Positions 29,418 through 63,600 of a stretch of DNA of 64,000 bases are shown in pieces. The stretch comes from a virus (Duplodnaviria > Caudoviricetes), in IMG/VR virus record IMGVR_UViG_2974749168_000001, positions 4,191 through 68,190 of that record. One strand, written 5' to 3'. Under the pieces are notes generated by a model. It was not told the origin of the DNA and did not search any database. It was given only the letters and a program-made list of their open reading frames with translations. The position numbers and the translations under genes were made by a program. The stretch's first letter is position 1, and every line of letters begins with the position of its first letter.

Positions 29418-31784
29418 GTGACCGACGTCCTCGACCTCAACCGGAAAACCCCGGAGGAGTTGCTCCTCGCGGGCAAACAGCTCGCGCTGAAGGCTGACAT
29501 CTGGGACCCGAAGAGTGTCGGCGAGATCGTCGCGAAGATCCTCGACATGTTCGGGCTCGACATCCCGAACTGGGAAGACGCGCTGGCGAATTGGGACGCG
29601 CTGAAGGACGCCTTCGAGGGCAACTACGTCGGCTCCGACCTCGCGCTCAACATCATCCAGAACACCGTCGGCACGATCCGGAGGCTGGCGACCGGCCTGA
29701 TCAACCCGTCCCGGCTGCCGCTGATCCCGTTCTCCCACATCGGCGAGGCCTACCCGAACCTGCTGGAGAACGGCGAGTTCGAGGGGGCCGACTCCCTCGA
29801 TGGCCAGGACATCTGGACCTGGGACGGCACCGAGGGCCGAAACGATCCTGGGTCGGCGCGCACCCACGGCAGCGGGGAGCGAAAGGTGCTGCTGTCCAAC
29901 GCTGTCGCCGCCACCCCGGAGCAGAAGTTCCAGATCTCGGGCTGGACGAAATGGAACGGGGTCTCGGGAGGCGCTGCGGCGCTACGGATCTCGGCCGTCG
30001 CATACGCCGGGGACACTATCGTCGGCGAGACGGTCATCGCGACGATCAACTCCCCGGCGTCGACGCAGGGGTGGACCCAGCTCAGCGGAACCTACGAGGT
30101 CCCCGCGGGAGCGGACGCCGTTCGGGTGCAGGTCGAGGTCGGCGCCAGCGTCACTCTCGGCACCGTGTGGTGGGACGACATGCGCGTCTCGAAGTACGGC
30201 AGCCTCCCGCAGCGCTTCATCGGCGGGCTCGTCGATGCCCTTGGCGACCTCGGCGCCGGAATTGTGGCCGTGGTCAACCAGATCGGTGACTTCTTCGACC
30301 GGATCACCGGCCGCGTCGGTGCCACCATCATCGACATCCAGGAGTGGATCTCCCAACTCGGAACGATCCTGTCCGGCGGGACCGTCGGCGCCGGTCTGCT
30401 CCCGACGTTGTCCAACGGGCTGCGCACCGTCGTCGGAGGCGTTCAGGGGTTCATCCAGAGCGTCATCGACACGATCCTCTCGGCGCTGCGCAAGGTCCCG
30501 GTGATCGGCGGCCTAATCTCCGACATCGGCGACGACATGGAGAATCTCGGGAACACTGCCCAGAAGGGGCTCTCGATCGCTCAGGATGGCCGGACGCTGG
30601 CCCAGAGCACCGTCTACAACATCGCCACCGCTCGGCCGCTGTGGTCCGGCCTGGACCCCACCGCGGAGGTCTCCTTCAACTGGGGCGACCTCGCCTACAA
30701 CACCGGCGGTTCGATCTCGACGCAGACGGTGACCCCGACGATCGCGCGCATCGTGAAGATCCGCTGCCAGGTCGACCAGATCATGAACACCGTGGCCATC
30801 CTCGCCTCGAAAAGCGGGACGTCGCAGTCGATCTACATGAACATCTACCGGTACAACGAGGAGACCGCGAAGTGGGTCCGGGTCTACGCGACCTCGTCCA
30901 GCTTCGCCTCACTGATCGGCGCCTCTCTCAACCGGGTCACCCTGAAGTTCTCCGAGGAGGGCTTCCCGGTCAGCGCGCAGGAGCTGTACGCCTTCGAGTT
31001 CTGGGTGACCGGCGGCAACGTCACCTTCGCCTCGAAGACCTTCCCTGTTGCACCGATCCCTTCGGTCGTGCCGGGAGCCATCGGCGGGTCCCGGAACCCG
31101 ACGACGGCGAACATGAACGAGATCACCAGTGCCGAGATGGAAGCGATCAACGACGGCAACACGATCTACCTGGAGTTCGGCTCGGACCTGGGGCAGCTCG
31201 AACTGCCGCGGCACTTCTTCATCAACTTCGACAACTACTCGTGGCAGAACTGGGTTCGCAACACCGTCGATGGGAACCAGCTCCAGATCGAGAACGGCCG
31301 CGTGGTGTACGGCAACCCTGGAGGAGCCGGTGCCGGGGTGCAAACCGCCGTCTTCGGGTCGCAGACACTCACCGACGACATGGCCATCATCGGGGAGCTC
31401 GTCGAGGAGCCGAAGACCCTGGCGTACTCGGTGTTCGGGATCTGCTCGGACAACACGACGAGCAACAACAACGCCCAGACCGTGCTAATGCGCATCAACC
31501 GGGGCAACGTGGCGATCATGACTGGCGCGACCGTGCGTGCCGATGCCGACGGGACGTATACGGCAGGGTCGTACCGGTTGCGCTACAGCGAGGCGACGAA
31601 CACCTTCACCGCCGAGCGGTGGAACGGTCTGGGGTGGTCCTTCATCGTCGATTGGATCGACTCGGGGAGCGTCGCCGGACACGGGCCTGGTCGTCGCTAC
31701 GGAGTCATCGCGATCCAGTACGCCTTCTTCAACGCCGGACCCGCAATCGACAACGTCCAGATCATGGACCTGGTCGCGGCCTGA
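29418..31784 (+). CDS. Minor tail protein (large, with carbohydrate-binding-like domains)
   Basis: NLLENGEFE (CBM4-like start), lectin-like C-terminus; position. Confidence 0.85.
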   Translation: MTDVLDLNRKTPEELLLAGKQLALKADIWDPKSVGEIVAKILDMFGLDIPNWEDALANWDALKDAFEGNYVGSDLALNIIQNTVGTIRRLATGLINPSRLPLIPFSHIGEAYPNLLENGEFEGADSLDGQDIWTWDGTEGRNDPGSARTHGSGERKVLLSNAVAATPEQKFQISGWTKWNGVSGGAAALRISAVAYAGDTIVGETVIATINSPASTQGWTQLSGTYEVPAGADAVRVQVEVGASVTLGTVWWDDMRVSKYGSLPQRFIGGLVDALGDLGAGIVAVVNQIGDFFDRITGRVGATIIDIQEWISQLGTILSGGTVGAGLLPTLSNGLRTVVGGVQGFIQSVIDTILSALRKVPVIGGLISDIGDDMENLGNTAQKGLSIAQDGRTLAQSTVYNIATARPLWSGLDPTAEVSFNWGDLAYNTGGSISTQTVTPTIARIVKIRCQVDQIMNTVAILASKSGTSQSIYMNIYRYNEETAKWVRVYATSSSFASLIGASLNRVTLKFSEEGFPVSAQELYAFEFWVTGGNVTFASKTFPVAPIPSVVPGAIGGSRNPTTANMNEITSAEMEAINDGNTIYLEFGSDLGQLELPRHFFINFDNYSWQNWVRNTVDGNQLQIENGRVVYGNPGGAGAGVQTAVFGSQTLTDDMAIIGELVEEPKTLAYSVFGICSDNTTSNNNAQTVLMRINRGNVAIMTGATVRADADGTYTAGSYRLRYSEATNTFTAERWNGLGWSFIVDWIDSGSVAGHGPGRRYGVIAIQYAFFNAGPAIDNVQIMDLVAA

Positions 31785-32842
31785 TGTGGTCACCGACGCC
31801 GACCCCGGACCCGACCGTCAACCGCGGGACCGGTTGGTCCCCTGACGGCGTCGCTGAGGTCCCGATCGACAGCGAGATCGGCTGGTGGGTCCGGCAGCAG
31901 CTCATCGCCCGAGCCGAGCACCTCGGCGAGTTCCCTGCGACGCTGGCTGCGCACCTCCGCGCCGTCGCCGAGACCAGCGGGGCCTACCCGGCAACCCTCG
32001 TCGCACACCTGGTCGGCGTCGTCGCGTCGTCGGCCGTATCGACGGCCTCCCTGGTCGCGCATCTCAACGCCGTCACCGAGGCGCAGGCTGAGTTCCCGGG
32101 ACGTACGTCCGTACCAGGGATCGCGCCGATGGAGGCGACCGGCCAGTTCCTCGCGTCGCTCCAGGCGCATCTGCTGGCGGTGCAGACCGGCGCCGGAGAG
32201 CACGTTGCCACCCTCGCCGCACGACTCGTGGCCACCCTCGACGCCAGCGCGACCTTCCCCGGCAGAGGGGCCTACAGCCCGGTCGCGCCGACCACCACGG
32301 CATTCACCACCGTCGGCGCGTTCGCCTACCCGATCCCGGCCTGGAGCATCTACGTCGACGCCATCGGCGTCGGCGGCGGGCGCGGCGGGCAAACCGGATC
32401 CGGTGCGAACAGCCAACCCGGGTCCGGCGGTCTCCCTGGCGTCTGGGCCGGGATCACGCTTCAGCGCGGAGTCGACATCCCCTGGAGCGAGGTCCAGCTC
32501 ACCGGTGTCGTCGGCGCTGGCGGGGCCGGAGGAGCGAACTCGGACAACGCCGCGGGCCAACCCGGCGGGAACACCACGATCACCGCATCGGTCGGGACCC
32601 TCACTGCGGCCGGAGGAACCGGCGTCAACAGCGGCTCGACGAGACGCGATGGTCCGGGTCCTGGCGACTACACTTACCTCGATACCACCTACACCGGCGG
32701 CGCGCTGTCCGACGGCAGCGGGCTCCCCGGCAACCCTCCTGGCGGCGGCGGATCGGGTGGCAACGGCGGTGTTTTCGGCAACAGGACCCGCGGTGGCGCG
32801 GGAGCGAGGGGGCAGGCGTGGCTTCGAGCCCGACAGTCGTAG
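31784..32842 (+). CDS. Minor tail protein with 18-aa repeats and a Gly-rich C-terminus
   Basis: TGATG overlap; GVGGGRGG...GAGGAGG...PGGGGSGG...GAGARGQAW. Confidence 0.8.
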   Translation: MWSPTPTPDPTVNRGTGWSPDGVAEVPIDSEIGWWVRQQLIARAEHLGEFPATLAAHLRAVAETSGAYPATLVAHLVGVVASSAVSTASLVAHLNAVTEAQAEFPGRTSVPGIAPMEATGQFLASLQAHLLAVQTGAGEHVATLAARLVATLDASATFPGRGAYSPVAPTTTAFTTVGAFAYPIPAWSIYVDAIGVGGGRGGQTGSGANSQPGSGGLPGVWAGITLQRGVDIPWSEVQLTGVVGAGGAGGANSDNAAGQPGGNTTITASVGTLTAAGGTGVNSGSTRRDGPGPGDYTYLDTTYTGGALSDGSGLPGNPPGGGGSGGNGGVFGNRTRGGAGARGQAWLRARQS

Positions 32843-53860: not shown

Positions 53861-54334
53861 TTATTTCTCCAATTCGGAGTCGTAGCTAGGGATTTCACTG
53901 TCGGGGATGTAACGAACTGACTCCCCGATGGGCTGGGGGAGGAGGCGAAAGAGGGTCCCGGAGGTCGTAGAGACCTTCTCCAACAGGCCGATTTTCACCA
54001 GAGCGGTGAGTCGGCTGTACGCGGCAGACTCATTTAGGCCTAATATCGTCGCGGCTCCCTTGGCGGTCACTTCTTCGCCGGAGGTCGATTCGACCATCGA
54101 GTAGGTAGCGAACTGAACATCGGTTAGGGCCTGGAGGTCCCTTCCCAGGTCATCGGTGAGACCAGTAATGAGGGGCCTCCTCTGCGACTTCGTTGCCGAT
54201 CTCCTATATGGCCGATCGCGCATGGGCTCCTGCGACTGCTCCGAAGGGGGCTGCGACGACGGCCATTTCGAGAGGAAGTCCGCGATTTCAGCGGGGGTGC
54301 CGTTCAGGGACACGCCTCGGTAGACCGCTCTCAT
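53861..54334 (-). CDS. Winged-helix HTH DNA-binding protein, atypical codon usage
   Basis: VTAKGAATILGLNESAAYSRLTALVKIGLLEKV. Confidence 0.65.
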   Translation of the reverse strand: MRAVYRGVSLNGTPAEIADFLSKWPSSQPPSEQSQEPMRDRPYRRSATKSQRRPLITGLTDDLGRDLQALTDVQFATYSMVESTSGEEVTAKGAATILGLNESAAYSRLTALVKIGLLEKVSTTSGTLFRLLPQPIGESVRYIPDSEIPSYDSELEK

Positions 54335-55299
54335 CAGCCGATCTTCTTGATGCGGCAGACGGCGACGGAACGGAAGCCGCCGCCGACCTGGAGGAAGTGC
54401 AGGATGCGGAGGTCTTCTCCGTGCTCCTCGGGGTCGAACTCCGCGGGGGTGATGTGCGGCGGGTACTTGCCCCCGTCACCATCGACGATCGCGCGGTCGA
54501 GCGCGCCGGACAGAGCGTTGAGCCAGACGACCTCGACGCGGTTGTTCGACTTCCGGTTGACCCCGAGCTTGGTCAGGATCTCCGCGGAGGTGAGCGGGGA
54601 CGCGACGCCGGACCAGTTGCGGCTCGGATTGGCCTGCTGGCTGCGCACCGCAGCGTAGGTGTCCTGCTGGCTCCAGAGCGCGTTCGGCTGGTCAGCGGGG
54701 CGAGCGCGTTCCGCGGCGTCCTTGTGCGCGATCGCTTCGGCGGCGATGTCGAACTCGTCGACCTCGGGCACCATGCCGACGTGCTCCATGACCGTCTTCT
54801 CGGTGGGCGGCACTTCGTCGTCGCTATGGGCGGCACTCTCGTCGTCGGTGTCCGGATGGGCGGCACTGGTGGGCGGCACGTCCTGGTGGGCGGCACTATG
54901 GGCGGCACTGGTGGGCGGCACTGGCGCCTGGTCGGCGTCCACCGGCCCGGGGTCGGGCTGGTCGTCCTCGGGCTGCCGCGCCTCGGGGCCGAGGACGTGG
55001 AAGTCGTTCTCGATCTGCTCGCGCACGTCGCCGCTCTCGGTGTCCAGCACCTTCGTGGCGCCGCTGGGGTCGGTGTAGGTGACCTGGTCGTTCTCGGCGT
55101 CGGGGTCGACGGCGTAGAAGGCCTTCAGCTCCTCCCGGTCTCCAATCTCGTTGATCTCGCGCCGCAGCGTGACGAAGGCGAACTTCTTGTTGACCTTCGG
55201 GTGCCCCTTGGCCGGGGTCCAGTCGTACTTCTGCGCGTGCGCGGTGATCTGATTGGCCAGATCGAAGGCGTCCTGCTGGGCCTCGCTCAGTTCAGCCAT
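54334..55299 (-). CDS. Hypothetical protein (321 aa) with internal VPPT/SAAH repeats
   Basis: AAGGAG RBS; TGATG coupling; typical codon usage. Confidence 0.8.
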   Translation of the reverse strand: MAELSEAQQDAFDLANQITAHAQKYDWTPAKGHPKVNKKFAFVTLRREINEIGDREELKAFYAVDPDAENDQVTYTDPSGATKVLDTESGDVREQIENDFHVLGPEARQPEDDQPDPGPVDADQAPVPPTSAAHSAAHQDVPPTSAAHPDTDDESAAHSDDEVPPTEKTVMEHVGMVPEVDEFDIAAEAIAHKDAAERARPADQPNALWSQQDTYAAVRSQQANPSRNWSGVASPLTSAEILTKLGVNRKSNNRVEVVWLNALSGALDRAIVDGDGGKYPPHITPAEFDPEEHGEDLRILHFLQVGGGFRSVAVCRIKKIG

Positions 55300-55304
55300 G
55301 GTTC

Positions 55305-55345
55305 TCCTTAAATAATGTTGTTACTCAATAATATTCATTATTAAT
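55305..55345. promoter_or_regulatory. AT-rich divergent promoter block
   Basis: TTAAATAATGTTGTTACTCAATAATATTCATTATTAAT upstream of gene 55299. Confidence 0.6.
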
Positions 55346-55385
55346 CAGCGGATTTCTCGCGTACTCGCTGTACTCGGGTACCGGC

Positions 55386-55448
55386 GGGTCGGGGCGGGCT
55401 CGCGGGGCTCGGCCGCGGGGTCGGGTGCCACGGGGTCGGGTCGCGGGG
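55386..55448 (+). repeat. G-tract array (nine G3-G4 runs; CGGGGTCGGG repeated)
   Basis: Read directly. Confidence 0.7.
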
Positions 55449-55460
55449 TGGTCGCGCGCG

Positions 55461-55518
55461 TCGAACGTGCGTTCGACCGGGGTGGGTCGAACACTTGTTC
55501 GATCGAACCTCTGTTCGA
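55461..55518. promoter_or_regulatory. Three perfect LexA (SOS) boxes TCGAAC-N4-GTTCGA
   Basis: 55461-55476, 55487-55502, 55503-55518; match the actinobacterial LexA consensus. Confidence 0.75.
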
Positions 55519-55807
55519 TTGGGTCCCGATTCTGTCCGGCCGGTTGCCCGTTCGCGCTGTGCCGCGCGATCGCCGTATCGGGTCCCCGTTGGCGCGCTTA
55601 CCCTGGCGCCGTCGGTGCGCGTAGCTCTCGCGCTTCCCGTGTCCGCTGTGCTGTTTTCAATGGTCCCGCTGCGCCGTCCGGCGCGATACGACAACTGTAC
55701 CTGTTACCGGGCAACCGTCGCAACTCCCGGCCGTGTGGCCGTGTCGCGCTGCTCTCGTGTGCTGCTCATGAGACCACCGTACACACGTGCGCCGGTTGTC
55801 GCCAATC

Positions 55808-55837
55808 TTGCCAAGTACGGCCGTCGTCGCTTACTGT
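55808..55837 (+). promoter_or_regulatory. Promoter TTGCCA-N18-TACTGT upstream of the island
   Basis: Read directly; about 40 nt before the first island gene. Confidence 0.6.
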
Positions 55838-55878
55838 ATCCCCACCGGCCGCACACGGCGACCGGATGAGAGGACACT

Positions 55879-56682
55879 ATGACACTCACGCTCACCCCGC
55901 TCACCGGCGCCGACGCGCAGCGTTTCGACGGCGCGCAGTTCGACGACGCGACCGTCTACCGGATCGCCGATACCCGCGTGTCCGGTGTCGTCACCGCGCG
56001 CCGGGTCCTGTCGGGCAACGGTGCGCCGACCCACCGGGCGATTGACCCGACAACTGGCCGTGACGCCGATTCTGATACCCCGATCGCGCTCTATCCGTCG
56101 CTGTGGCTCACGTTCGGCGCGCAGGTGCGGGGGACCTATCTGAACACTCACGACACCGAAGAGATGTATCCCGAACCGTTCACCGTCAACGGCCGCGCGT
56201 ATCACCGGGTGACGGTGCGCGTCGACTTCCATCCGGTCGGTGTCGCCGGTCTCGACGTCAATTACACGTCACCCCAATCGGTCTCGCAATGGAACAGGTA
56301 CCCGGTCGAGACCGCGCGAGAGCGTGCCCGGGATCTCGCCGACGGCGTCGGGGGTGTCCTGTTTGTCGAGAGCGTGCCCGGGACCCACGGTGAGCGCTCG
56401 CACGGCGTCTACGTCGCCGACGTCTCGCAGTTCGACCGCGGCGAGATGACGCAGGCCGGTCGCCGCACGACCGAAAGGATCGCCGTCGAGATCTTGCGTG
56501 CGCAGATCGACACCGGTGTCGAGACCGATTGGCTCGACGACGTCGCCGCGCATGTCAATGCGCAGATCGCAGCGGCCGACGAGATCGCGCACCGATGGAA
56601 CGTCGAGAGCGCGAGGCTTCAGAACGTGCGCGTTGCTGCGCGCACCGAAGCGGTTTGCGGTCACGCCGTGGTGATCCGATGA
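55879..56682 (+). CDS. Island hypothetical protein (267 aa, no Lys)
   Basis: GAGAGGA RBS; long ORF; ATGA coupling to the next gene. Confidence 0.8.
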   Translation: MTLTLTPLTGADAQRFDGAQFDDATVYRIADTRVSGVVTARRVLSGNGAPTHRAIDPTTGRDADSDTPIALYPSLWLTFGAQVRGTYLNTHDTEEMYPEPFTVNGRAYHRVTVRVDFHPVGVAGLDVNYTSPQSVSQWNRYPVETARERARDLADGVGGVLFVESVPGTHGERSHGVYVADVSQFDRGEMTQAGRRTTERIAVEILRAQIDTGVETDWLDDVAAHVNAQIAAADEIAHRWNVESARLQNVRVAARTEAVCGHAVVIR

Positions 56683-57074
56683 CACTCACCCTCGACACGC
56701 GCGTCGCTACCGGCGCGCTCGCGATTGACGTTGAGAGCGTCGGCGAGACCGTCGCGACGCTCACCGCGGCCGGGTATGTCTGGCAAGTGATCGCCGACGC
56801 CGACGACACCGGCGCCGACCGGGTGCGCGTCGTGTGCCACGGTCGCCGGATCTCGCGACTGTTCGACCGGTGGCAGTACCCGCGGGCCGACGTGTGGTCG
56901 GCCGTCGCCGTCGCCGGTGTCCGCACGCTCACCGGCGCACAGCGGGTGACGCTCACCCTCGCCCCGGCCGGACCCGGCGCCGTATCGTTCCGCGGCCGAC
57001 GGCCGCTTCCCGACGCCGAACGTCACGCCGTCGAGAGCGCAGCGCGGCACTACGCCGTCACTGATCTCGACTAA
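56679..57074 (+). CDS. Island hypothetical protein (131 aa, no Lys)
   Basis: ATGA overlap; MTLTL N-terminus like its neighbours. Confidence 0.7.
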   Translation: MTLTLDTRVATGALAIDVESVGETVATLTAAGYVWQVIADADDTGADRVRVVCHGRRISRLFDRWQYPRADVWSAVAVAGVRTLTGAQRVTLTLAPAGPGAVSFRGRRPLPDAERHAVESAARHYAVTDLD

Positions 57075-57110
57075 CCGCTCACTCCCCTACTGACAGAACA
57101 GGATCGGACC

Positions 57111-57407
57111 ATGACTGTTACCCAACTCCCCAACGGCGCATACGCCGGGATCGACGACGACGACCGCGCGGCGCGGATCGCCTACCTCGGACGGCCGCGC
57201 CGACCGGGGGACCCCGGCGACCACTACCGGACACCCCGCGGATACGCGCGCTGCTACCGGTGCGAGAACAGCGCGACGACACACGTTCGGATGGCGATTA
57301 GCTCACTCACGCCGGTGTGTTTCCAACACCTGGACATGCTCGACGTCGAGCGGGACCCCTACGGGACCACGGTCGAGCGCGTACAACCGACCACCGAAAA
57401 CAACTGA
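57111..57407 (+). CDS. Island hypothetical protein (98 aa, CxxC...CxxH, no Lys)
   Basis: CAGGA RBS; CYRC...CFQH. Confidence 0.7.
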   Translation: MTVTQLPNGAYAGIDDDDRAARIAYLGRPRRPGDPGDHYRTPRGYARCYRCENSATTHVRMAISSLTPVCFQHLDMLDVERDPYGTTVERVQPTTENN

Positions 57408-57425
57408 GAGACAGGACACCCCACC

Positions 57426-58175
57426 ATGGACACGCGAATCATTGACCACGTCGACACGACCCGAATCGGGACTCAATCGGACGACGGCCTATTGCAGCTC
57501 ACTGACATCGGGTGCGACACCGACACCGACGACGCTGTGAGCGTCACCGTCCGGGAGCTGATTGGTCACAACGGATGGACATGTTCCCCGCGGTCGCTTG
57601 ACAAGCGTATGCGCCGCTTCGCTGCGCGCTGCTCGGGATACGGCGACCGTGCGCGGGTGAGCGTCGAGCGTCGGTGGATCGCTTACGGGTGCGACAACGT
57701 GACCTATTCGGTCCGTCCGGCCGACGGCCGACCGGGGGAGCGCTCCCGAGCGCGCCTCGACGGGATCTTTGCCGCCAACGGATGGCGCAGCGCGGCGAGC
57801 GATAAGTCGGGACACCCGGACGTGTACGTCCGGGACACGACACACGGGGGACCTCGGGCAATGGTCCAGGTGTATAGGGACCCGGCGCGGGGTCGAGTCA
57901 CCGGAGCGACGCTGTTCGACGACGACGGCCGCGCCTACCCGTTCCCATCACACGGGACGCTGCGCGCGGTGAGCGCGTACCTGCTCGGGTACCGGTGGAA
58001 GGTCACGACATACAACGGCGCCGTCCCGACGTTCGGCGTTCGCTACGGTCCCTCGGGGTCGATTGTGTTCCCGACCGAACCGGCCGCGCGCCGGTACTTC
58101 AAGCGCGTCAACCGTGAGCAGAGCGCAACGATCACCCGTGTCCCACCGGCCGACAAACCGGCCGGTACCCGGTAG
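57426..58175 (+). CDS. Island hypothetical protein (249 aa)
   Basis: CAGGA RBS. Confidence 0.75.
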   Translation: MDTRIIDHVDTTRIGTQSDDGLLQLTDIGCDTDTDDAVSVTVRELIGHNGWTCSPRSLDKRMRRFAARCSGYGDRARVSVERRWIAYGCDNVTYSVRPADGRPGERSRARLDGIFAANGWRSAASDKSGHPDVYVRDTTHGGPRAMVQVYRDPARGRVTGATLFDDDGRAYPFPSHGTLRAVSAYLLGYRWKVTTYNGAVPTFGVRYGPSGSIVFPTEPAARRYFKRVNREQSATITRVPPADKPAGTR

Positions 58176-58176
58176 T

Positions 58177-58205
58177 TTGCACGGTTGACGTTAAGCGCGT
58201 AACGT
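58177..58205 (+). promoter_or_regulatory. Promoter TTGCAC-N17-TAACGT with the operator variant TTGACGTTAA in the spacer
   Basis: Read directly. Confidence 0.68.
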
Positions 58206-58249
58206 ATCCCACATCGGGTCACCGGGACCCACTCACGAAAGGATCGACC

Positions 58250-58933
58250 ATGACACTCACACACGTTGTTACCGTCCGCGACACCGTCACGCTGCGCCGG
58301 GATCTCTCAGCTACCGGGTACGTCGGCGCAGTTCATCCCGACGGCGTCACCGTGCGGGTGTCCTGGGAAGGCGGGGCCGGTGTCTCGACCCTCGAAAACA
58401 TCGCCGATCTGTTCTATATCCTGCCTGCCGATCACGTCGGCGAGCGTCACACGGTTGATCTGCGGCCGGGTGTCCCGACGGTGTGCGGCGCCGGTGTGTT
58501 CACGTGGACAGACGAGTACGGCGACGAGTACGCGGGAAGCTGTACTCACCCCGCTGGGCATGACGGGGACTGTGCCGTGTCGATCGACGGCCTCGACGGC
58601 CTCGACGACGAGCGTTGCGTCGCGTGCGGTGAACCGGTCGACTACTGCCAGGGACACGGCGAGATCGGCGACCCGGTCGGCCGTGCGATCCTCGACGCAC
58701 ACGACGACGGCGACCACAACAATTGTCACCCGCTCGGGTGCGACGACGCTCCCCGGTCGTACTGGTACCGGTTCAACCGGCCGATGGAGCGGGAGCACTA
58801 CGTCGGCGATCTCGACGGTCTCGCGTATCACGTCGCGCGTCTACTCACCGTCCGGACCGTTCGCCTGCTCGACGACGGCCGCATGGTCGACGCCGGTTGC
58901 GGGATGACCGTCGGCGAGTATGGCGAACTGTAA
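58250..58933 (+). CDS. Island acidic Cys/His-rich protein (227 aa, no Lys)
   Basis: GAAAGGA RBS; several Cys/His clusters. Confidence 0.78.
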   Translation: MTLTHVVTVRDTVTLRRDLSATGYVGAVHPDGVTVRVSWEGGAGVSTLENIADLFYILPADHVGERHTVDLRPGVPTVCGAGVFTWTDEYGDEYAGSCTHPAGHDGDCAVSIDGLDGLDDERCVACGEPVDYCQGHGEIGDPVGRAILDAHDDGDHNNCHPLGCDDAPRSYWYRFNRPMEREHYVGDLDGLAYHVARLLTVRTVRLLDDGRMVDAGCGMTVGEYGEL

Positions 58934-58946
58934 CCCTCACTCATCC

Positions 58947-58975
58947 CGCGGCCGGGTCACCTCGACCCGGCCGCG
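58947..58975 (+). terminator. 12-bp perfect intergenic hairpin
   Basis: CGCGGCCGGGTC-ACCTC-GACCCGGCCGCG. Confidence 0.55.
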
Positions 58976-59000
58976 CCCTCACAGATAGGAAACGCTCATC

Positions 59001-59669
59001 ATGTCCGCAACGGGATACCTCGGCCGCAACGTGTACCGGTCGGCCGACGAGAACAAACAACCGACACCCGTCGAGCGGCTCACGGGGACCTCGACGACGT
59101 TCGGCCCTCGACCGCGCACGCTGCGCCGTAACGCCGACATCGGGCCCGCGATCGCCGACCGGATACCCGCCCTCGACGGCGGCGTGAGCGACGACGACGC
59201 GCGCGCAGCGGCCGCGTTTCGCACCCGCAACGGCGCCGTGTCGGCCGGATGGATCCCGTACGGCGAACTGTGCCGGTGGATCACGGGTCGATACGACGGC
59301 GCAGACAACGGGTGCGCGCTCCCCGCGGGGTGGCGCCGGGAGCTGTCCGAAGTCGCCTGCACACAATCGACGGCGTACGTGTACGTCGTATTCAGCTACG
59401 AAACGCCGATAGCGTGGCTGGACATGCGGGACGCGGCGCCGGTGCGCTCCCCGCTGCTCACGGTCCCCGATGTCCGCTATTCCCTCTCGACCGGCCGTCA
59501 CCAATCGGCGTGCCTCGGATACTTCCCGCGCAACGCCGACGGGACGCACGACTACTCGCGTGAGTACGTCCGCACCGGTGAGCGTGCGACGCTCCCCGAC
59601 GTCGACCCCGGGGAAGTCTCGCGTGGCCGCGGCCGGTCCCCGTTCGGACCTCGACGGGGAGGCTACTGA
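59001..59669 (+). CDS. Island hypothetical protein (222 aa)
   Basis: TAGGA RBS; YVVFSYETPIAW...YSLSTGRHQS pattern recalled from other actinophage proteins. Confidence 0.78.
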   Translation: MSATGYLGRNVYRSADENKQPTPVERLTGTSTTFGPRPRTLRRNADIGPAIADRIPALDGGVSDDDARAAAAFRTRNGAVSAGWIPYGELCRWITGRYDGADNGCALPAGWRRELSEVACTQSTAYVYVVFSYETPIAWLDMRDAAPVRSPLLTVPDVRYSLSTGRHQSACLGYFPRNADGTHDYSREYVRTGERATLPDVDPGEVSRGRGRSPFGPRRGGY

Positions 59670-59671
59670 AC

Positions 59672-59842
59672 ATGCGAGCGTCCGAACGTCGCGCGCTCCG
59701 CGCGATCACGGCCGACGCGCTGCGCGGGGTGGTCGCGATACCGGCCGACTCCCCTCACTACTGGCAAGCGCTCGACACCCTGCACACGGCCCGCGCACAC
59801 CGGCGCGCGCTGCTCACCCTCACAGATTGGCCCGAAAAATGA
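59672..59842 (+). CDS. Island small protein (56 aa; not in the ORF track)
   Basis: Hand translation MRASERRALRAITADALRGVVAIPADSPHYWQALDTLHTARAHRRALLTLTDWPEK; ATGA coupling to the next gene. Confidence 0.55.
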   Translation: MRASERRALRAITADALRGVVAIPADSPHYWQALDTLHTARAHRRALLTLTDWPEK

Positions 59843-60672
59843 CACACTCACCCGCTGCTAGCGACGTAATCGCAACGCGCACACTCGACCCCGTCGACGG
59901 TTTCACGCTCACCGCTTTCGAGGTCCCCGACACCGACTCGACACCGATCGGCCAATCGCTCGACGAGGGTGGCTGTTACACGGCCGACGACATCGAGGCA
60001 TGGCGCCGTGATGAGTGGCAGTACGTCGGTGTCGTCGTCGTCGCGTCGCGCGCCGGGGTGGATCTCGGGAGCGCGTCGATATGGGGAATGGACACCGGCG
60101 ACTATTGGGACGCGATCACTCGCGCCGACGGCCGGACACCCTACGGGGTGCTGGACAACGTCCCGAACAGCGTCACCACGGGACACCCTCGGGAGGATGG
60201 CGGGATCGACTACGTCACCCGGGATGACTTTGCCCACGGATACGGCGCAGACCTGATCTCTGAAGCGCTCACCGAAGCGCGCGCGACGGTCGCCGCGCTC
60301 ACGTCGCCGGACGTCGTAATCCCGGTGTGCGACGAGTGTGGGGAGCGCGCCGACGGCGTGAGCGACGCGCACGGCGTCGCCTGCTCACTGTTCACGGGCA
60401 ACGTCGCCGGGGACCCCTACGAGGTCCCGGCGCCGACGTTCTACCCGGGTGCGGGAGGCTGGCACACCGAACAGCGGGGGACATGCACGTATCACGTCGC
60501 GACCATCGCCGGGGGACATCGCGCGGCGTATGTGACGTTGAGCGATGCCAACGAGTACGTCGCCGGTCTCTACGACACAACGGACACCCCGCACGTGATC
60601 GGGACGTTCCCGACGCTGTTCGACGGGAAGCGCGCGGCCGACGCTGCTCGGGAGCGGGGGAGCGTCAAGTGA
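59839..60672 (+). CDS. Island acidic hypothetical protein (277 aa)
   Basis: AWRRDEWQYVGVVVVASRAGVDLGSASIWG pattern; CDEC motif. Confidence 0.78.
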   Translation: MTHSPAASDVIATRTLDPVDGFTLTAFEVPDTDSTPIGQSLDEGGCYTADDIEAWRRDEWQYVGVVVVASRAGVDLGSASIWGMDTGDYWDAITRADGRTPYGVLDNVPNSVTTGHPREDGGIDYVTRDDFAHGYGADLISEALTEARATVAALTSPDVVIPVCDECGERADGVSDAHGVACSLFTGNVAGDPYEVPAPTFYPGAGGWHTEQRGTCTYHVATIAGGHRAAYVTLSDANEYVAGLYDTTDTPHVIGTFPTLFDGKRAADAARERGSVK

Positions 60673-61352
60673 ACGTCACGACACCCGACGGCCGTGTGAT
60701 CGGCCGCGTGGATCTCACCCCGACCGACGTCGCAGCGCTCGCGCACGGTGTCGGCGCCGACGTCGAGCGACGCGCTCGCGCTCTCATCGGCGCGCAGCGC
60801 GCAGCGATCGCCACCGGGGGAGGCTGGACACCGGGACCGTCGACCGACGCGCGACCGTCGAGCGGGGAGCGTCCCCGTCGCCGTCGATGGTGGCCGTGGA
60901 TCGCCGGTGTGTTCGGCGCGCTCGCGCTGCTCGGGATGATCGCCGACACCGACGAGACACCCGCGGCCGACTCCCCGGCCGTCGAGGTCCCCGCAACCGT
61001 GGCACCGCAACCGGTCGACGCTGCGCGCGCGGTCCCGGCCGCGGACGGTTCGATCATGGTTGGGGCCGTCGTGGTCGACAACGTATTCGACGACCGCTCA
61101 CCGCTGCGCGACCGGTTTGCCGGTGTCGTGATCTCGCACGGCGCAACCGGGACCGTCGGCCGTGAGCTTGACGCGAACCTACGCGACGGGATCAAGTTCT
61201 GTCGGGATCTCGCGACCGGGCAACCGATCGCCACCCGACACGCGGCGATCGTCACCGGGACCGCCCCGGCGCGCGCCGGGTACGGGGACCTCGGGACCCA
61301 ACGTCGCGCGATCGTCACCGCTGCGCTCTCGACGCTGTGCCCTGCTCTGTAA
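60669..61352 (+). CDS. Island membrane-anchored protein with a DUF732-like C-terminal domain
   Basis: RRRRWWPWIAGVFGALALLGMIA TM; GIKFCRDLATG ... AALSTLCP cysteine pair. Confidence 0.65.
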   Translation: MNVTTPDGRVIGRVDLTPTDVAALAHGVGADVERRARALIGAQRAAIATGGGWTPGPSTDARPSSGERPRRRRWWPWIAGVFGALALLGMIADTDETPAADSPAVEVPATVAPQPVDAARAVPAADGSIMVGAVVVDNVFDDRSPLRDRFAGVVISHGATGTVGRELDANLRDGIKFCRDLATGQPIATRHAAIVTGTAPARAGYGDLGTQRRAIVTAALSTLCPAL

Positions 61353-61384
61353 CCCTCACTCACACAACAAGAATTGGAGCTGTC

Positions 61385-61915
61385 ATGCACTTCAAACCGG
61401 GTAACGCGCTCGCGCAAGTGAGCGACCGGCACTATCTCACGCTCGACGACGTCGTCGAGTACTCCCGGACCGACCGGTATCCGGCGCCGCGCAGCGCTAC
61501 CGGGTACGGCGAGAGCGCAACGGCGCACCGGTTGCGCTGCGCCGTCGGCGACGACGGCCGGATACTCACCCGGCGTGTGTACGTCCTGAACTATGGCAAC
61601 GGGGGAGGCACGCCGTACGTGTACGGCCGGGTGAGCGGGGAGCGCACACGGTTCTACCTCGACCCGTGGGTCGAGGACTACGTGCGTGCCATGGTCGCGC
61701 TCGACCGGAAAACGTCGGCCGTCGAGACGCTCGACGTCACCCGCGCAGCGACACAGGACCGATGGAACGATTACGGGTACGCCGACCGGGTGAGCGCGAC
61801 CGACGGTAGTCCTCGGGGACCGCTGCGCGTCTACCCGACGTCGAGACCAGACGACGTCGGCCGGTTAACCCGTGAGGGTCGTCTGTACTTCGCACGTCGG
61901 GACGCGCAGCGATGA
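61385..61915 (+). CDS. Island hypothetical protein (176 aa)
   Basis: GGAG RBS; SATGYG...RRVYVLNYGNGG..YV pattern. Confidence 0.75.
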   Translation: MHFKPGNALAQVSDRHYLTLDDVVEYSRTDRYPAPRSATGYGESATAHRLRCAVGDDGRILTRRVYVLNYGNGGGTPYVYGRVSGERTRFYLDPWVEDYVRAMVALDRKTSAVETLDVTRAATQDRWNDYGYADRVSATDGSPRGPLRVYPTSRPDDVGRLTREGRLYFARRDAQR

Positions 61916-62241
61916 GCGCGCGCGACGAGTGGCGACTGGGTGCGCCGGGAATGCTCACGTCCGGCGACGTGTGGTCACAGTCTCGACCGGCGACCGTCAA
62001 CGTTCTCATGTGGTCGGCCGACAACGCCGAGGGAAACAACGTTTACGCGCGACCGCGAGGACCGATCGCCGACGTGGTCCGGGATCTTGTCTGGCAGACA
62101 TGGCGAGAGCTGCGGCCGACGCTCGCGCAGCGCTACCCGGACGCGATTGTCACCGTGCGGCCGGACGACTGCTATCGCGGCCGGTGGCACTACACCGTGT
62201 GGTCTCACCCGTTAGTTGCGCCGGTTAGCGTCAACCCGTAA
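61912..62241 (+). CDS. Island hypothetical protein (109 aa, no Lys)
   Basis: ATGA coupling. Confidence 0.65.
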   Translation: MSARDEWRLGAPGMLTSGDVWSQSRPATVNVLMWSADNAEGNNVYARPRGPIADVVRDLVWQTWRELRPTLAQRYPDAIVTVRPDDCYRGRWHYTVWSHPLVAPVSVNP

Positions 62242-62288
62242 TGTCTGTCGTGTCGGCGAGAGACGCCGACGAGACGAGAGGACACCCC

Positions 62289-62624
62289 ATGGCACACAAC
62301 ACACTCACCGCGCAGATGTTTGACGCGCTCGCGTCGGTCGACATCGACGGCGTCGACATCTCTCAGGACCACGCCGGTCGGTGGCTCGACCTCGAATTGA
62401 CCACCGGGGAGGGCGGGGACCTGCTCATCGACCGTGATCGCCGGTACCCGGACGGTCTCGGGTGGCGGACACGGTGCGACCGTGTCGGGACCCGTCACCA
62501 CCGGACCATGGGGGACGTTGTCGACTACGTGACGTGGTGGGCCGACCGGTACGGCTACACGACACCGGACGTCGCGCCGGTGACGCTCACCCTGTTCGAC
62601 GGCGGCGCGTCGGTCGACGTATAG
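62289..62624 (+). CDS. Island hypothetical protein (111 aa, no Lys)
   Basis: GAGAGGACACCCC RBS. Confidence 0.7.
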   Translation: MAHNTLTAQMFDALASVDIDGVDISQDHAGRWLDLELTTGEGGDLLIDRDRRYPDGLGWRTRCDRVGTRHHRTMGDVVDYVTWWADRYGYTTPDVAPVTLTLFDGGASVDV

Positions 62625-62633
62625 CTCACCCCT

Positions 62634-62662
62634 CGGGACCCGGTCACTACGGCCGGGTCCCG
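62634..62662 (+). terminator. 10-bp intergenic hairpin followed by TTT
   Basis: CGGGACCCGG / CCGGGTCCCG. Confidence 0.55.
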
Positions 62663-62690
62663 TTTCATCTCTCACAGATTGGATCTCCCC

Positions 62691-62966
62691 ATGACAGACC
62701 ACCGGACACCCGGAATCATCACCAAAGTCGACCGACTCACCCGGGCAAACACACTCGCGCTCGAAACGGCCGTCACCCGCGGATACCTCGACGGCGACCG
62801 GGTCGACGTCGGTCGCACCGTCGCGACGTTTCGGGACGCGACTGCGGCCGACGCGCTCGCGTTGCTCGACGCTGCTCGGGAAGCGCTCGCACAGGATCAC
62901 GGGACCCGGGGACACCCCGTAGCGTCGCTACCGGCCGTGCGCCGTAAGTTGGTCGCGCTGCTGTAA
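62691..62966 (+). CDS. Island hypothetical protein (91 aa)
   Basis: Preceded by the CTCACAGATTGG motif. Confidence 0.7.
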   Translation: MTDHRTPGIITKVDRLTRANTLALETAVTRGYLDGDRVDVGRTVATFRDATAADALALLDAAREALAQDHGTRGHPVASLPAVRRKLVALL

Positions 62967-63010
62967 TTCCCGGCGCATCGGGTGAGTTGGTCCCCGACGT
63001 TGGATGACAC

Positions 63011-63048
63011 CCGACACCCCGTCACTCCCCATGGTGACGGGGTGTCGG
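63011..63048. terminator. 15-bp perfect hairpin closing the island
   Basis: CCGACACCCCGTCAC / GTGACGGGGTGTCGG. Confidence 0.65.
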
Positions 63049-63241
63049 CGTGTGTGCGCTGTGCGGGTGTCGTGTGTGCGGGTGGATCTCGGGGAGCGTC
63101 GTCGAGAGCGGGTGCGCTGCTCGGGAGCGTGAGAGCGTCGCTGTGCTCGACGCCGGGAAGGTGAGCGGGTGAGTGTGCGCTCATCGCTGCGCGGCCGTGT
63201 GTGGCGATCTCGGGACGTGTGCGGCCGTGTGTCGTCGAGCA

Positions 63242-63284
63242 GGGTAGGGGTGTCATGGGTAGGGGTGTCCTAGGTAGGGGTGTC
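63242..63284 (+). repeat. GGTAGGGGTGTC x3, 15-bp period
   Basis: 63243, 63258, 63273. Confidence 0.85.
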
Positions 63285-63309
63285 TGTGCGGCGCCGAATG
63301 ATGGGAGCA

Positions 63310-63600
63310 TTTCAAAAAACTTTACTGACTTGAATTATCTTTACTGACATGGATTATCTTTACTAACGTGCATATAGGCAGATACGAGGTAATTGTTTTC
63401 TAAGAATGAACAGGAATAAATAATTAATTATTTGTATTAGGCATTGTAATAGGCATAGGGGAGGGGTCCTATATAGGGGTATTTATGCACATTGAATAAT
63501 ACTTAGATGTTCTAATAATATTTCTAGAAATAATTCTGAGATATTTCTAGAATGAGTTGCACAATTGACGTCAATCGTTTAAACTAAGAATGTCAGCAAG
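63310..63600. other. AT-rich, origin-like region with three tandem 19-bp repeats and palindromes
   Basis: CTTTACTGACTTGAATTAT / CTTTACTGACATGGATTAT / CTTTACTAACGTGCAT at 63320, 63339, 63358; TATTTCTAGAAATA at 63519-63532. Confidence 0.55.
63557..63585 (+). promoter_or_regulatory. Promoter TTGCAC-N17-TAAACT with ATTGACGTCAAT in the spacer
   Basis: Read directly. Confidence 0.75.

Follow-up and report, generated by a model that had tools for sequence, protein, structure and literature searches.

Lysine deserts, defined as continuous Lys-free regions covering at least 50% of a protein's length or at least 150 aa, have been described in Actinobacteria and in the pan-proteome of Mycobacterium phages (Szulc et al., 2023, PMC10665810; reviewed in PMC13696103). 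Whether the deserts of actinobacteria and their phages represent an adaptation to the Pup-proteasome or an artefact of GC content is debated, and what has been published is a proteome-wide signal with GC as a confounder. Comparable Lys poverty is found in the catalytic chains of ER-translocating AB toxins and in Lys-less viral proteins, in which Arg stands in for Lys and function is retained. The classical reading of this loss is escape from Lys-directed tagging. At the level of DNA, the first-step-transfer (FST, pre-early) region of phage T5 consists of small orphan genes in a sharply bounded terminal block that has an oligonucleotide usage of its own, and internal Shine-Dalgarno (SD) words are depleted in coding sequences elsewhere. 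The locus described here resembles each of these in part.

The window, which is the whole stretch of 64,000 nucleotides that was analysed, belongs to a 68-kb Gordonia phage (Foxborovirus) that is 96% identical to NatB6. Gene calls were carried over from NatB6 and matched all 13 ORFs at 55879-62966. These genes constitute a right-arm accessory block, or cassette, belonging to high-GC Zierdtviridae of the Gordonia/Rhodococcus branch. An earlier note on this DNA had described 13 consecutive + strand genes with an abrupt switch at their edge; the switch coincides with a divergent intergenic region (~55300-55660), and the compositional regime proved slightly larger than the genes (~55345 to ~63300, ~8 kb), ending ~0.7 to 1 kb from the right genome end. 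The features are as follows, where alternation is the fraction of nucleotide steps that pass between purine and pyrimidine.

55345..63300, no strand: whole compositional segment, cassette plus two long non-coding flanks; alternation ~0.58
55461..55518, no strand: three perfect TCGAAC-N4-GTTCGA boxes, upstream of the cassette within the divergent control region
55660..55869, +: doubtful 69-aa ORF in the leader, homologue of NatB6 gp78; dN/dS 0.94 versus GTE8
55879..56682, +: gene 1, 267 aa, 0 Lys; core family, in 36/36 related records
56679..57074, +: gene 2, 131 aa, 0 Lys; phrog_13959
57111..57407, +: gene 3, 98 aa, 0 Lys, with Cys
57426..58175, +: gene 4, 249 aa, 5 Lys, the most in the cassette
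58250..58933, +: gene 5, 227 aa, 0 Lys, rich in Asp and His
59001..59669, +: gene 6, 222 aa, 1 Lys
59672..59842, +: gene 7, 56 aa, 1 Lys
59839..60672, +: gene 8, 277 aa, 2 Lys; phrog_5644 at the N-terminus
60669..61352, +: gene 9, 227 aa, 1 Lys; annotated membrane protein, phrog_16405, weak DUF732 match
61385..61915, +: gene 10, 176 aa, 2 Lys
61912..62241, +: gene 11, 109 aa, 0 Lys
62289..62624, +: gene 12, 111 aa, 0 Lys
62634..62662, +: 12-bp GC-rich hairpin; after it come the CTCACAGATTGGA module, which recurs, and the start codon of the next gene
62691..62966, +: gene 13, 91 aa, 2 Lys, one of them invariant in 7/7 aligned homologues
62967..63300, no strand: non-coding GT-rich flank; alternation 0.57, GTGTGTGCGC-type tracts and three GGGTAGGGGTGTC repeats

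The boxes, which we take to be putative sites of the mycobacterial-type LexA/SOS consensus, number three in the window versus 0.3 expected; 7 related phages have them at an identical position, and in GTE5 they lie at the cassette edge. The 69-aa leader ORF may be non-coding. A confident structure model of gene 1 comprises a beta-rich N-terminal part followed by a long C-terminal helix, and this predicted structure matches no known fold. Three of the Lys residues of gene 4 are held in common with the Commandaria and GTE8 homologues, and remoter homologues have Arg or a gap there. Ribosome-binding sites in the cassette are weak (GGA).

The earlier hand count of Lys was exact: the 13 proteins contain 14 Lys in 2241 aa (0.62%), and six of them (267, 131, 98, 227, 109, and 111 aa) contain none. 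Lys makes up 4.5% of residues elsewhere in the same genome, and the two genes chosen for comparison were likewise counted correctly (14 Lys in 321 aa for 54334-55299; 14 in 356 aa for the capsid gene). In a permutation test, no random draw of 13 other genes out of 200,000 was as Lys-poor, the difference from other genes was significant (Mann-Whitney p = 5e-7; 1.6e-6 versus genes of ≤280 aa), and the lowest three 13-gene Lys runs of the genome all fall in the cassette. By the relative definition, 12/13 cassette proteins are lysine deserts versus 4/38 other proteins of at least 150 aa, and among the 7 cassette proteins that reach 150 aa, 5 have a Lys-free stretch of that length or more. As published descriptions ask of a desert, genomic GC content does not explain this poverty. 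The block has the lower GC3, and the remainder of the same genome has 4.5% Lys, which bears out the claim that a genome-wide GC effect is not responsible. Unlike the published deserts, the signal here is confined to one operon, so that the cassette provides a natural within-genome control: host and GC content are the same, and Lys differs 7-fold.

The same cassette is present in nine phages, whose ~29 unrelated gene families are all Lys-poor (0.4 to 1.1%); a trait of a single family was rejected on this basis. The poverty is kept through divergence to 34 to 43% amino-acid identity, with dN/dS of 0.1 to 0.6. As to whether homologues in unrelated phages are equally Lys-poor, a question raised in the earlier note, homologues were found only within this phage group and always in the same cassette.

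Amino-acid composition in the cassette has shifted within chemical classes, with class totals kept (cassette versus rest: K+R, 11.2 versus 11.8%; D+E, 13.1 versus 13.8%; F+Y+W, 7.7 versus 7.6%; normal aliphatic total). Lys is the most depleted residue (0.15x), and its share of basic residues is 0.06 versus 0.38; Glu, Gln, Met, Phe, Ile, and Asn are also down (0.44 to 0.60x). The shifts run from Lys to Arg, Glu to Asp, Phe to Tyr, Ile/Leu/Met to Val, and Ser to Thr, and the favoured members have codons that fit the nucleotide rule described below: Arg CGN rather than Lys AAR, Asp GAC rather than Glu GAG, Tyr TAC rather than Phe TTC, Thr ACN rather than Ser, and His CAC rather than Gln CAG. Replacement of Ile, Leu, and Met by Val (GTN) is also seen, where the change from Ile to Val leaves the purine/pyrimidine pattern unaltered. 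Enrichment is seen for 14 of the 16 codons that alternate throughout (RYR, YRY).

The DNA of the segment follows the same pattern. Alternation is 0.576 in the cassette, whereas all remaining 2-kb windows of the genome fall between 0.44 and 0.51, and it is 0.577 to 0.601 in the nine cassettes versus 0.496 in their controls; Kimchi1738 and Dryad have neither the alternation excess nor the Lys poverty. Alternation at 58 to 60% of steps rather than ~49% arises because the steps AG/CT and GG/CC are rarer than expected, whereas AC/GT and CG are favoured. The rule is strand-symmetric and equal at the three codon steps (1-2, 0.560 versus 0.474; 2-3, 0.553 versus 0.462; 3-1, 0.629 versus 0.534, where base content predicts 0.520). 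At the 3-1 junction, odds in the nine cassettes are 0.41 to 0.65 for AG, 0.57 to 0.69 for CT, 0.56 to 0.76 for GG/CC, 1.46 to 1.95 for AC, 1.34 to 1.56 for GT, and 1.28 to 1.43 for CG; in controls AG/CT is near 1 (0.93 to 1.19) and the other steps are far less extreme. The two long non-coding flanks show alternation of 0.57 with odds as in the cassette, versus 0.455 in other non-coding DNA. Short intergenic spacers within the cassette (0.37 to 0.55) do not show the regime. In cassettes only, 4-mers and their reverse complements are both scarcer than in a codon-shuffle null: AGCC (0 versus 21 expected) with GGCT (11 versus 31), CCAG (4 versus 17) with CTGG (14 versus 44), and GGGC (14 versus 67) with GCCC (11 versus 50). 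Lys poverty in the cassette is accompanied by this frame-independent, strand-symmetric dinucleotide regime, a further difference from the published deserts and one not predicted by the Pup hypothesis. The regime also sets the cassette, known from its sequence, apart from the AB toxins and Lys-less viral proteins, which are single proteins in a eukaryotic ubiquitin context, carry no DNA-level signature, and have been studied by add-back experiments.

Unlike T5 FST DNA and other restriction-site-poor early islands, the cassette does not avoid short palindromes, and its rule operates on dinucleotides rather than sites. ACGT, CCGG, GCGC, and TCGA exceed Markov expectation, as does GGCC, mainly within CGGCCG (55 occurrences, where the remaining genome predicts 14). 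AGCT, TGCA, and CGCG are modestly below it, other common 4-bp palindromes are at or above it, and 6-bp palindromes match local expectation; loss of restriction words of the T5 type was thus not found among 4-bp and 6-bp palindromes. As in SD depletion, the frequencies of AGG, GGAG, GAGG, and AAGG are 3- to 10-fold below those of the remaining genome. However, strong anti-SD binders stand at 0.65 of the codon-shuffle null versus 0.71 in controls, which is no greater loss, and the complementary CT/CC words are avoided equally. Neither Gly GGN codons nor GA/TC steps are avoided in the cassette, and long alternating tracts are no more frequent than first-order expectation, which gives no specific Z-DNA signal.

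The reading that we favour, at about even chances, is that the whole ~8-kb segment is under a nearest-neighbour nucleotide rule and that the loss of Lys is mostly collateral. The rule covers coding DNA and the long flanks alike, and the proteins keep their class totals while using, within each class, members whose codons fit. Lys would be the biggest casualty because both of its codons are all purine and it has a near-perfect substitute. A log-linear model fitted without the Lys codons predicted an AAG ratio of 0.21, a 5-fold loss, versus 0.11 observed (9-fold), and comparable shifts are seen in K:N (0.16), Q:H (0.20), and E:D (0.35). The model accounts for most of the loss of AAG, and a Lys-specific residual of ~2-fold remains, so there may also be a direct contribution. 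The earlier note had offered avoidance of AAG/AG in the DNA as a competitor to its own favoured causes; a DNA-level by-product does fit better than those causes, but the rule is broader than AAG/AG avoidance, and out-of-frame AAG is barely depleted. Against the favoured reading, AG depletion is strong at step 2-3 (0.32) and slight at 1-2 (0.84; AGC unchanged), and the short spacers, Gly GGN codons, and GA/TC steps stand outside the regime. Since ~60% of the alternation excess resides in the amino-acid sequence, causality could also run partly from protein to DNA.

We infer that Lys poverty is mainly collateral to a constraint at the level of the duplex, with direct lysine avoidance (Pup-proteasome) or tRNA escape as possible minor contributors. 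What imposes the rule is harder to name; selection on the duplex is our leading guess, rather unlikely as it is when taken singly. The segment is the only operon transcribed toward the right, putatively origin-proximal genome end and the adjoining AT-rich iteron region, and the gain might be fewer RNA:DNA hybrids or less non-B DNA where transcription meets replication. Alternatively, the rule could evade a host factor that reads such steps. In its boldest form, which we put forward tentatively, a duplex-level "code" of physical or defence-related cause on one operon would have rewritten the residues of ~30 unrelated families and nearly abolished Lys. If true, selection on DNA would here clearly be setting protein composition inside a single phage genome. 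To the debate on lysine deserts the cassette adds a third option, in which amino-acid usage is pulled along by a local rule at the nucleotide level, in a sharply bounded, conserved, and tractable system (SEA-PHAGES phages, Gordonia terrae 3612) for comparing DNA- and protein-level selection. Purine/pyrimidine alternation per operon is a simple statistic with which similar segments could be found elsewhere.

Direct selection against Lys, with Arg substituted to escape the Pup-proteasome (PafA/Mpa/PrcAB) or another Lys-directed modifier, is unlikely as the main cause but is the best of the alternatives. On this view the cassette proteins would do their work at a time when that system is active in the host. 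Lys is the residue most depleted at constant K+R, it lies below the nucleotide-model prediction, and alignment, as had been suggested, showed that the residual Lys residues are mostly sporadic and exchange with Arg (39) and Thr (31). The cassettes of Gordonia and Rhodococcus phages are Lys-poor and that of a Corynebacterium phage is not, and Corynebacterium is without a proteasome (PMC13696103); this contrast is one genome, confounded by its 51% GC. Evasion of the Pup-proteasome calls for depletion specific to Lys, but other residues fall as well and are replaced within class throughout. The shifts from Glu to Asp, Phe to Tyr, Ile/Leu/Met to Val, and Ser to Thr are left unexplained, as are the junction and non-coding signature and the symmetric 4-mer gaps, and Lys is at normal levels in the divergently transcribed replication genes and in other small, fast-evolving genes of this phage.

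Defences that target tRNA-Lys are well documented (PMC10264068, PMC11555353), and NAG codons (Lys, Gln, Glu) could be avoided so that the cassette stays translatable when the C34 or s2U34 tRNAs for these amino acids are depleted by an anticodon nuclease or toxin. AAG (0.10x), CAG (0.34x), and GAG (0.46x) all fall and the NAC codons of Asp, His, and Tyr rise; a Rhodococcus relative has an RNA ligase gene in the arm adjoining its cassette, and a related Corynebacterium phage carries a tRNA-Lys. We nevertheless consider such escape improbable. The NAA:NAG shift does not exceed the overall rise of A/T-ending codons (TAT, TGT, CGT, ACA) and equals the overall loss of GC3 bias, depletion of Met, Phe, Ile, and Asn matches that of Gln and Glu, and all other genes of the phage still require tRNA-Lys. 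No tRNA genes were found in the window, and the annotation of NatB6 lists no tRNA, RNA ligase, or RNA-repair gene. Junction, non-coding, and strand-symmetric features are again unaccounted for.

Equally improbable is a foreign signature, in which the genes circulate in a separate pool (another replicon or phage lineage) whose oligonucleotide signature they retain through ongoing exchange and not through selection in place. No part of these genomes is more mosaic than the cassette, with many of its families in only some phages, and its GC3 is below that of the rest. However, searches of 1.84 billion cluster representatives and 50,697 phage records found homologues of gene 1 nowhere outside the group. 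Core families, accessory families, and the long flanks all share one signature, it persists at saturating synonymous divergence, and long vertically inherited core families still carry it in full.

High-GC genes have antisense shadows that are free of Lys. Miscalled frames, or neutral drift toward GC-rich composition in ORFans under weak constraint, would match the 0 to 2% Lys of this genome's antisense shadow ORFs and the ~1.4% that random sequence of the same base composition would give, but is very improbable, as GC1 > GC2 < GC3 is a sense pattern, frames are open with lengths conserved to 34% identity under the dN/dS values given above, gene 1 has a confident predicted fold, GC3 is lower rather than higher in the cassette, the junction signature disfavours drift, and equally fast-evolving small left-arm genes have 4 to 10% Lys.

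The virus record totals 68,190 bp, of which the window covers bases 4191-68190. Region 55800-63000 shares 95.8% identity with Gordonia phage NatB6 (Zierdtviridae, Emilbogenvirinae, Foxborovirus; host Gordonia terrae) and matched Gordonia phages only; genes were called by carrying the NatB6 annotation over by tblastn. The lysine-poor cassette comprises homologues of NatB6 gp79-gp92, tightly packed on the + strand at the right genome end and separated by a 580-bp control region from a divergent leftward replication arm. The segment is organized as follows.

55345-55878, long non-coding left flank
55461-55518, three perfect TCGAAC-N4-GTTCGA boxes
55660-55869, 69-aa leader ORF, doubtful (dN/dS 0.94)
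55879-62966, + strand, cassette of 13 genes
55879-56682, + strand, gene 1 of the cassette, 267 aa
62967-63300, GT-rich non-coding right flank
63310-63600, AT-rich iteron region, directly right of the GT-rich flank

The cassette reading frames are real, since codon-position GC has the sense pattern (GC1 > GC2 < GC3), open frames and lengths are retained down to 34-43% identity, dN/dS is 0.1-0.6, and gene 1 gave a confident structural model. A first AF2 model had a pLDDT of 41; the second, of gene 1 with nine homologues aligned, reached 88. Searches of the latter with Foldseek (PDB and BFVD) and VIA-align returned no related fold, only trivial long-helix matches. For the cassette proteins, Pfam gave nothing but one weak DUF732 match under the curated cut-off, PDB profile searches were empty or weak and nonsignificant, an ESM Atlas search gave no match above chance, and PHROGs matches were to families of unknown function plus one annotated membrane protein family. 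No paper describing this cassette was found.

The earlier note had described an island of 13 nearly lysine-free genes that did not reflect a genome-wide GC effect, and both points held. Of the 2241 residues in the 13 proteins, 14 are Lys (0.62%), six proteins having none, while the other 76 genes average 4.5%. None of 200,000 random draws of 13 other genes was equally lysine-poor, and the genome's three lowest-lysine 13-gene runs all lie within the cassette. By the published relative criterion for a lysine desert (a continuous Lys-free region of at least 50% of protein length), 12 of 13 cassette proteins qualify, versus 4 of 38 larger proteins elsewhere. Stronger GC pressure is excluded because GC3 is lower in the cassette (∼0.81) than elsewhere (0.88), with third-position A and T increased. 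Small left-arm genes, whose divergence from NatB6 is faster than that of the cassette, contain 4-10% Lys. Outside the cassette, a 352-aa minor tail protein (31784-32842, NatB6 gp44 homologue) also has no Lys; this structural protein belongs to an arm whose lysine content is otherwise normal.

Lysine poverty was followed into related phages, and it held in each one listed here.

Lysine content of the cassette in related phages
GTE8, 0.94%
MerCougar, 0.39%
Sukkupi, 0.49%
IDyn, 0.56%
Marietta, 0.52%
Commandaria, 0.80%
GTE5, about 1%
Rhodococcus phage MacGully, 1.10% (5.44% in its other genes)

In Corynebacterium phage Kimchi1738 (same family, 51% GC), the figures were only 3.8% versus 5.8%, and no lysine-poor block was found in Streptomyces phage Dryad. 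The genes of GTE5 and Dryad were called with an automatic caller. The objection that scarcity is a protein-family property fails, since it is common to ∼29 BLAST-unrelated cassette families, many restricted to some genomes. The homologues of gene 1 are confined to this phage group, none being found outside it. In alignments of cassette homologues, leftover Lys is largely sporadic, few columns being conserved, and its main exchange partners are Arg (39) and Thr (31), the type of substitution that the earlier note had proposed to look for. The scarcity is a purge that has been maintained rather than an artefact of GC content, and its persistence across genera and families makes the observation stronger than first stated.

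The lysine deficit is the extreme case of a shift within amino acid classes generally. Glu (0.55x), Gln (0.51x), Met (0.44x), Phe (0.58x), Ile (0.59x), and Asn (0.60x) are reduced in the cassette, and Arg (1.49x), Thr (1.47x), Val (1.35x), Asp (1.30x), Tyr (1.66x), His (1.56x), and Cys (2.15x) are raised. Class totals hardly differ from those of the rest (K+R, 11.2 versus 11.8%; D+E, 13.1 versus 13.8%; F+Y+W, 7.7 versus 7.6%), but the K fraction of basic residues is 0.06 versus 0.38 elsewhere, the E fraction of acidic residues is 0.28 versus 0.49, and the F fraction of aromatic residues is 0.25 versus 0.42. Among codons, AAG (0.10x), CAG (0.34x), GAG (0.46x), and CTG (0.56x) are scarcer; ACA (11x) and TAT, TGT, and CGT (3-5x) are commoner; of the 16 codons that alternate fully (RYR, YRY), 14 are enriched; and Gly codons are not avoided.

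The cassette also follows a regime at the nucleotide level. In the cassette, AG (0.45x), CT (0.81x), and AA (0.62x) are depleted, and AC and GT (1.4x), CG (1.3x), and TA (1.8x) are enriched. Alternation, the share of purine/pyrimidine-alternating dinucleotide steps, is 0.576, compared with 0.44-0.51 in all other 2-kb windows of the genome, and it changes stepwise at genome position 60 kb; nine cassettes gave 0.577-0.601, and their control genes gave 0.496. The excess is equal at all three codon steps (1-2, 0.560 versus 0.474 in the rest; 2-3, 0.553 versus 0.462; 3-1, 0.629 versus 0.534, where base content predicts 0.520). Amino acid selection alone is therefore insufficient, since the 3-1 junction would then stay put. 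Junction odds are strand-symmetric, and in all nine cassettes AG (0.41-0.65), CT (0.57-0.69), GG (0.56-0.76), and CC (0.60-0.70) are disfavored while AC (1.46-1.95), GT (1.34-1.56), and CG (1.28-1.43) are favored; in controls, AG/CT is about 1 and the other steps are much less extreme. Against a codon-shuffle null, 4-mers were lost as reverse-complement pairs in cassettes only: AGCC/GGCT (0 versus 21 and 11 versus 31 expected), CCAG/CTGG (4 versus 17 and 14 versus 44), and GGGC/GCCC (14 versus 67 and 11 versus 50). The two long non-coding flanks show the same odds and an alternation of 0.57, versus 0.455 in other non-coding DNA; the short spacers between cassette genes lie outside the regime (0.37-0.55). 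Protein sequence carries ∼60% of the alternation excess, codon usage ∼10%, and codon context ∼30%. AG depletion is strong at step 2-3 (0.32) and at junctions and weak at step 1-2 (0.84; AGC unchanged).

To what extent does this regime account for the lysine loss? A log-linear codon-shift model of position-specific bases and 1-2 and 2-3 dinucleotides, fitted with Lys codons left out, predicted ratios of 0.21 for AAG (observed, 0.11) and 0.76 for AAA (observed, 0.95). Neighbor products for AAG agreed with the model (AAC x GAG/GAC = 0.23; AAC x CAG/CAC = 0.16). Together these indicate that most of the purge comes from two general trends, NAG-to-NAC replacement and fewer A-initial codons. The model leaves a residual of ∼2-fold, comparable to that of other outliers such as ACA. 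We give an even chance to the reading that the cause is a segment-wide, strand-symmetric, frame-independent nearest-neighbor rule, of which lysine is the largest casualty: such a rule acting on the DNA would shift amino acid usage and hit lysine hardest. The purge described in the earlier note stands, and its interpretation is supported in part; the causes that it favored, escape from lysine-directed tagging or from tRNA-Lys destruction, are less likely than its own DNA-level alternative, which, once broadened, is best supported. What imposes the rule is the interesting question raised by the cassette.

Direct avoidance of lysine is rather unlikely. The published lysine-desert signal carries a Pup-proteasome adaptation hypothesis, which its authors and a 2026 review describe as untested and GC-confounded (PMC10665810, PMC13696103), and our literature search turned up no experimental link between pupylation and phage proteins. 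Escape at the tRNA level is improbable: the synonymous NAA:NAG shift is significant, yet it does not exceed the general increase of A/T-ending codons, which counts against a tRNA-specific cause. An RNA ligase gene in the MacGully arm adjoining the cassette (L010:8896-10122) and a tRNA-Lys, one of five tRNAs, in Kimchi1738 (L011:25563-25636) hint that tRNA-targeting defenses matter in the family. Import of the signature from a foreign gene pool is just as improbable, and drift or artefact is scarcely credible.

Other mechanisms were also considered. The AAG/AG avoidance suggested earlier survives as such a rule but not as a ban on the AAG word itself, out-of-frame AAG occurring at 0.75x and 1.6x (small counts). 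Nor did the tests support restriction-site avoidance (most common palindromes at or above expectation), mRNA-structure selection in either direction (MFE z-scores of −0.29 for the cassette versus −0.5 to −0.8 elsewhere), internal SD avoidance as driver (modest, not cassette specific against a shuffle null), the mycobacterial RNase E motif RNCNT (equal density in cassettes and controls), or Z-DNA tract selection (long alternating tracts at first-order expectation). Depletion of Type I-E PAMs (AAG/AGG/GAG) is unlikely, given that ∼50 AAG/CTT sites are left and that CCA, GAA, and CAG are equally depleted.

The three TCGAAC-N4-GTTCGA boxes, which we take to be mycobacterial-type LexA boxes, are located in the divergent control region, upstream of the cassette; the window contains no further copies (0.3 boxes expected). 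They recur at the equivalent site in NatB6, GTE8, MerCougar, Sukkupi, IDyn, Marietta, and Commandaria and at the cassette edge in GTE5; in all, eight Gordonia phages (L001, L004-L009, and L012), otherwise annotated as lytic, have one to three copies at the cassette head. This placement makes SOS control of the cassette likely in Gordonia phages. MacGully was searched for the boxes and has none; therefore, SOS control is not required for the regime. A HicA-like mRNA-interferase toxin homologue (1521-1766; 100% identical to NatB6 gp9) has no adjacent annotated antitoxin.

Ribosome-binding sites in the cassette are weak (GGA) and lie within a recurring hairpin and CTCACAGATTGGA module, ordered as a GC-rich hairpin, CTCACAGAT(T/A)GGA, and the start codon; several genes begin with ATGACACTCAC (M-T-L-T). 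The module could be a cassette-specific RNA-processing or translation-initiation element. In addition, ACGTGTAC occurs in four copies (∼0 expected), within perfectly alternating tracts of 12-14 nt (GCGTACGTGTACGT and similar), and may be a binding site.

58934-59000, 59800-59838, 62625-62690, and other gene starts, intercistronic module
59373-59386, 61573-61584, 61614-61625, ACGTGTAC

CGGCCG occurs 52-55 times in 55879-62966, where the rest of the genome would predict ∼14, and three quarters of the segment's GGCC sites fall inside a CGGCCG. The right flank holds GTGTGTGCGC-type tracts and three tandem GGGTAGGGGTGTC repeats. If the adjoining iteron region is an origin, the cassette would be the sole block whose transcription meets the leftward fork head-on.
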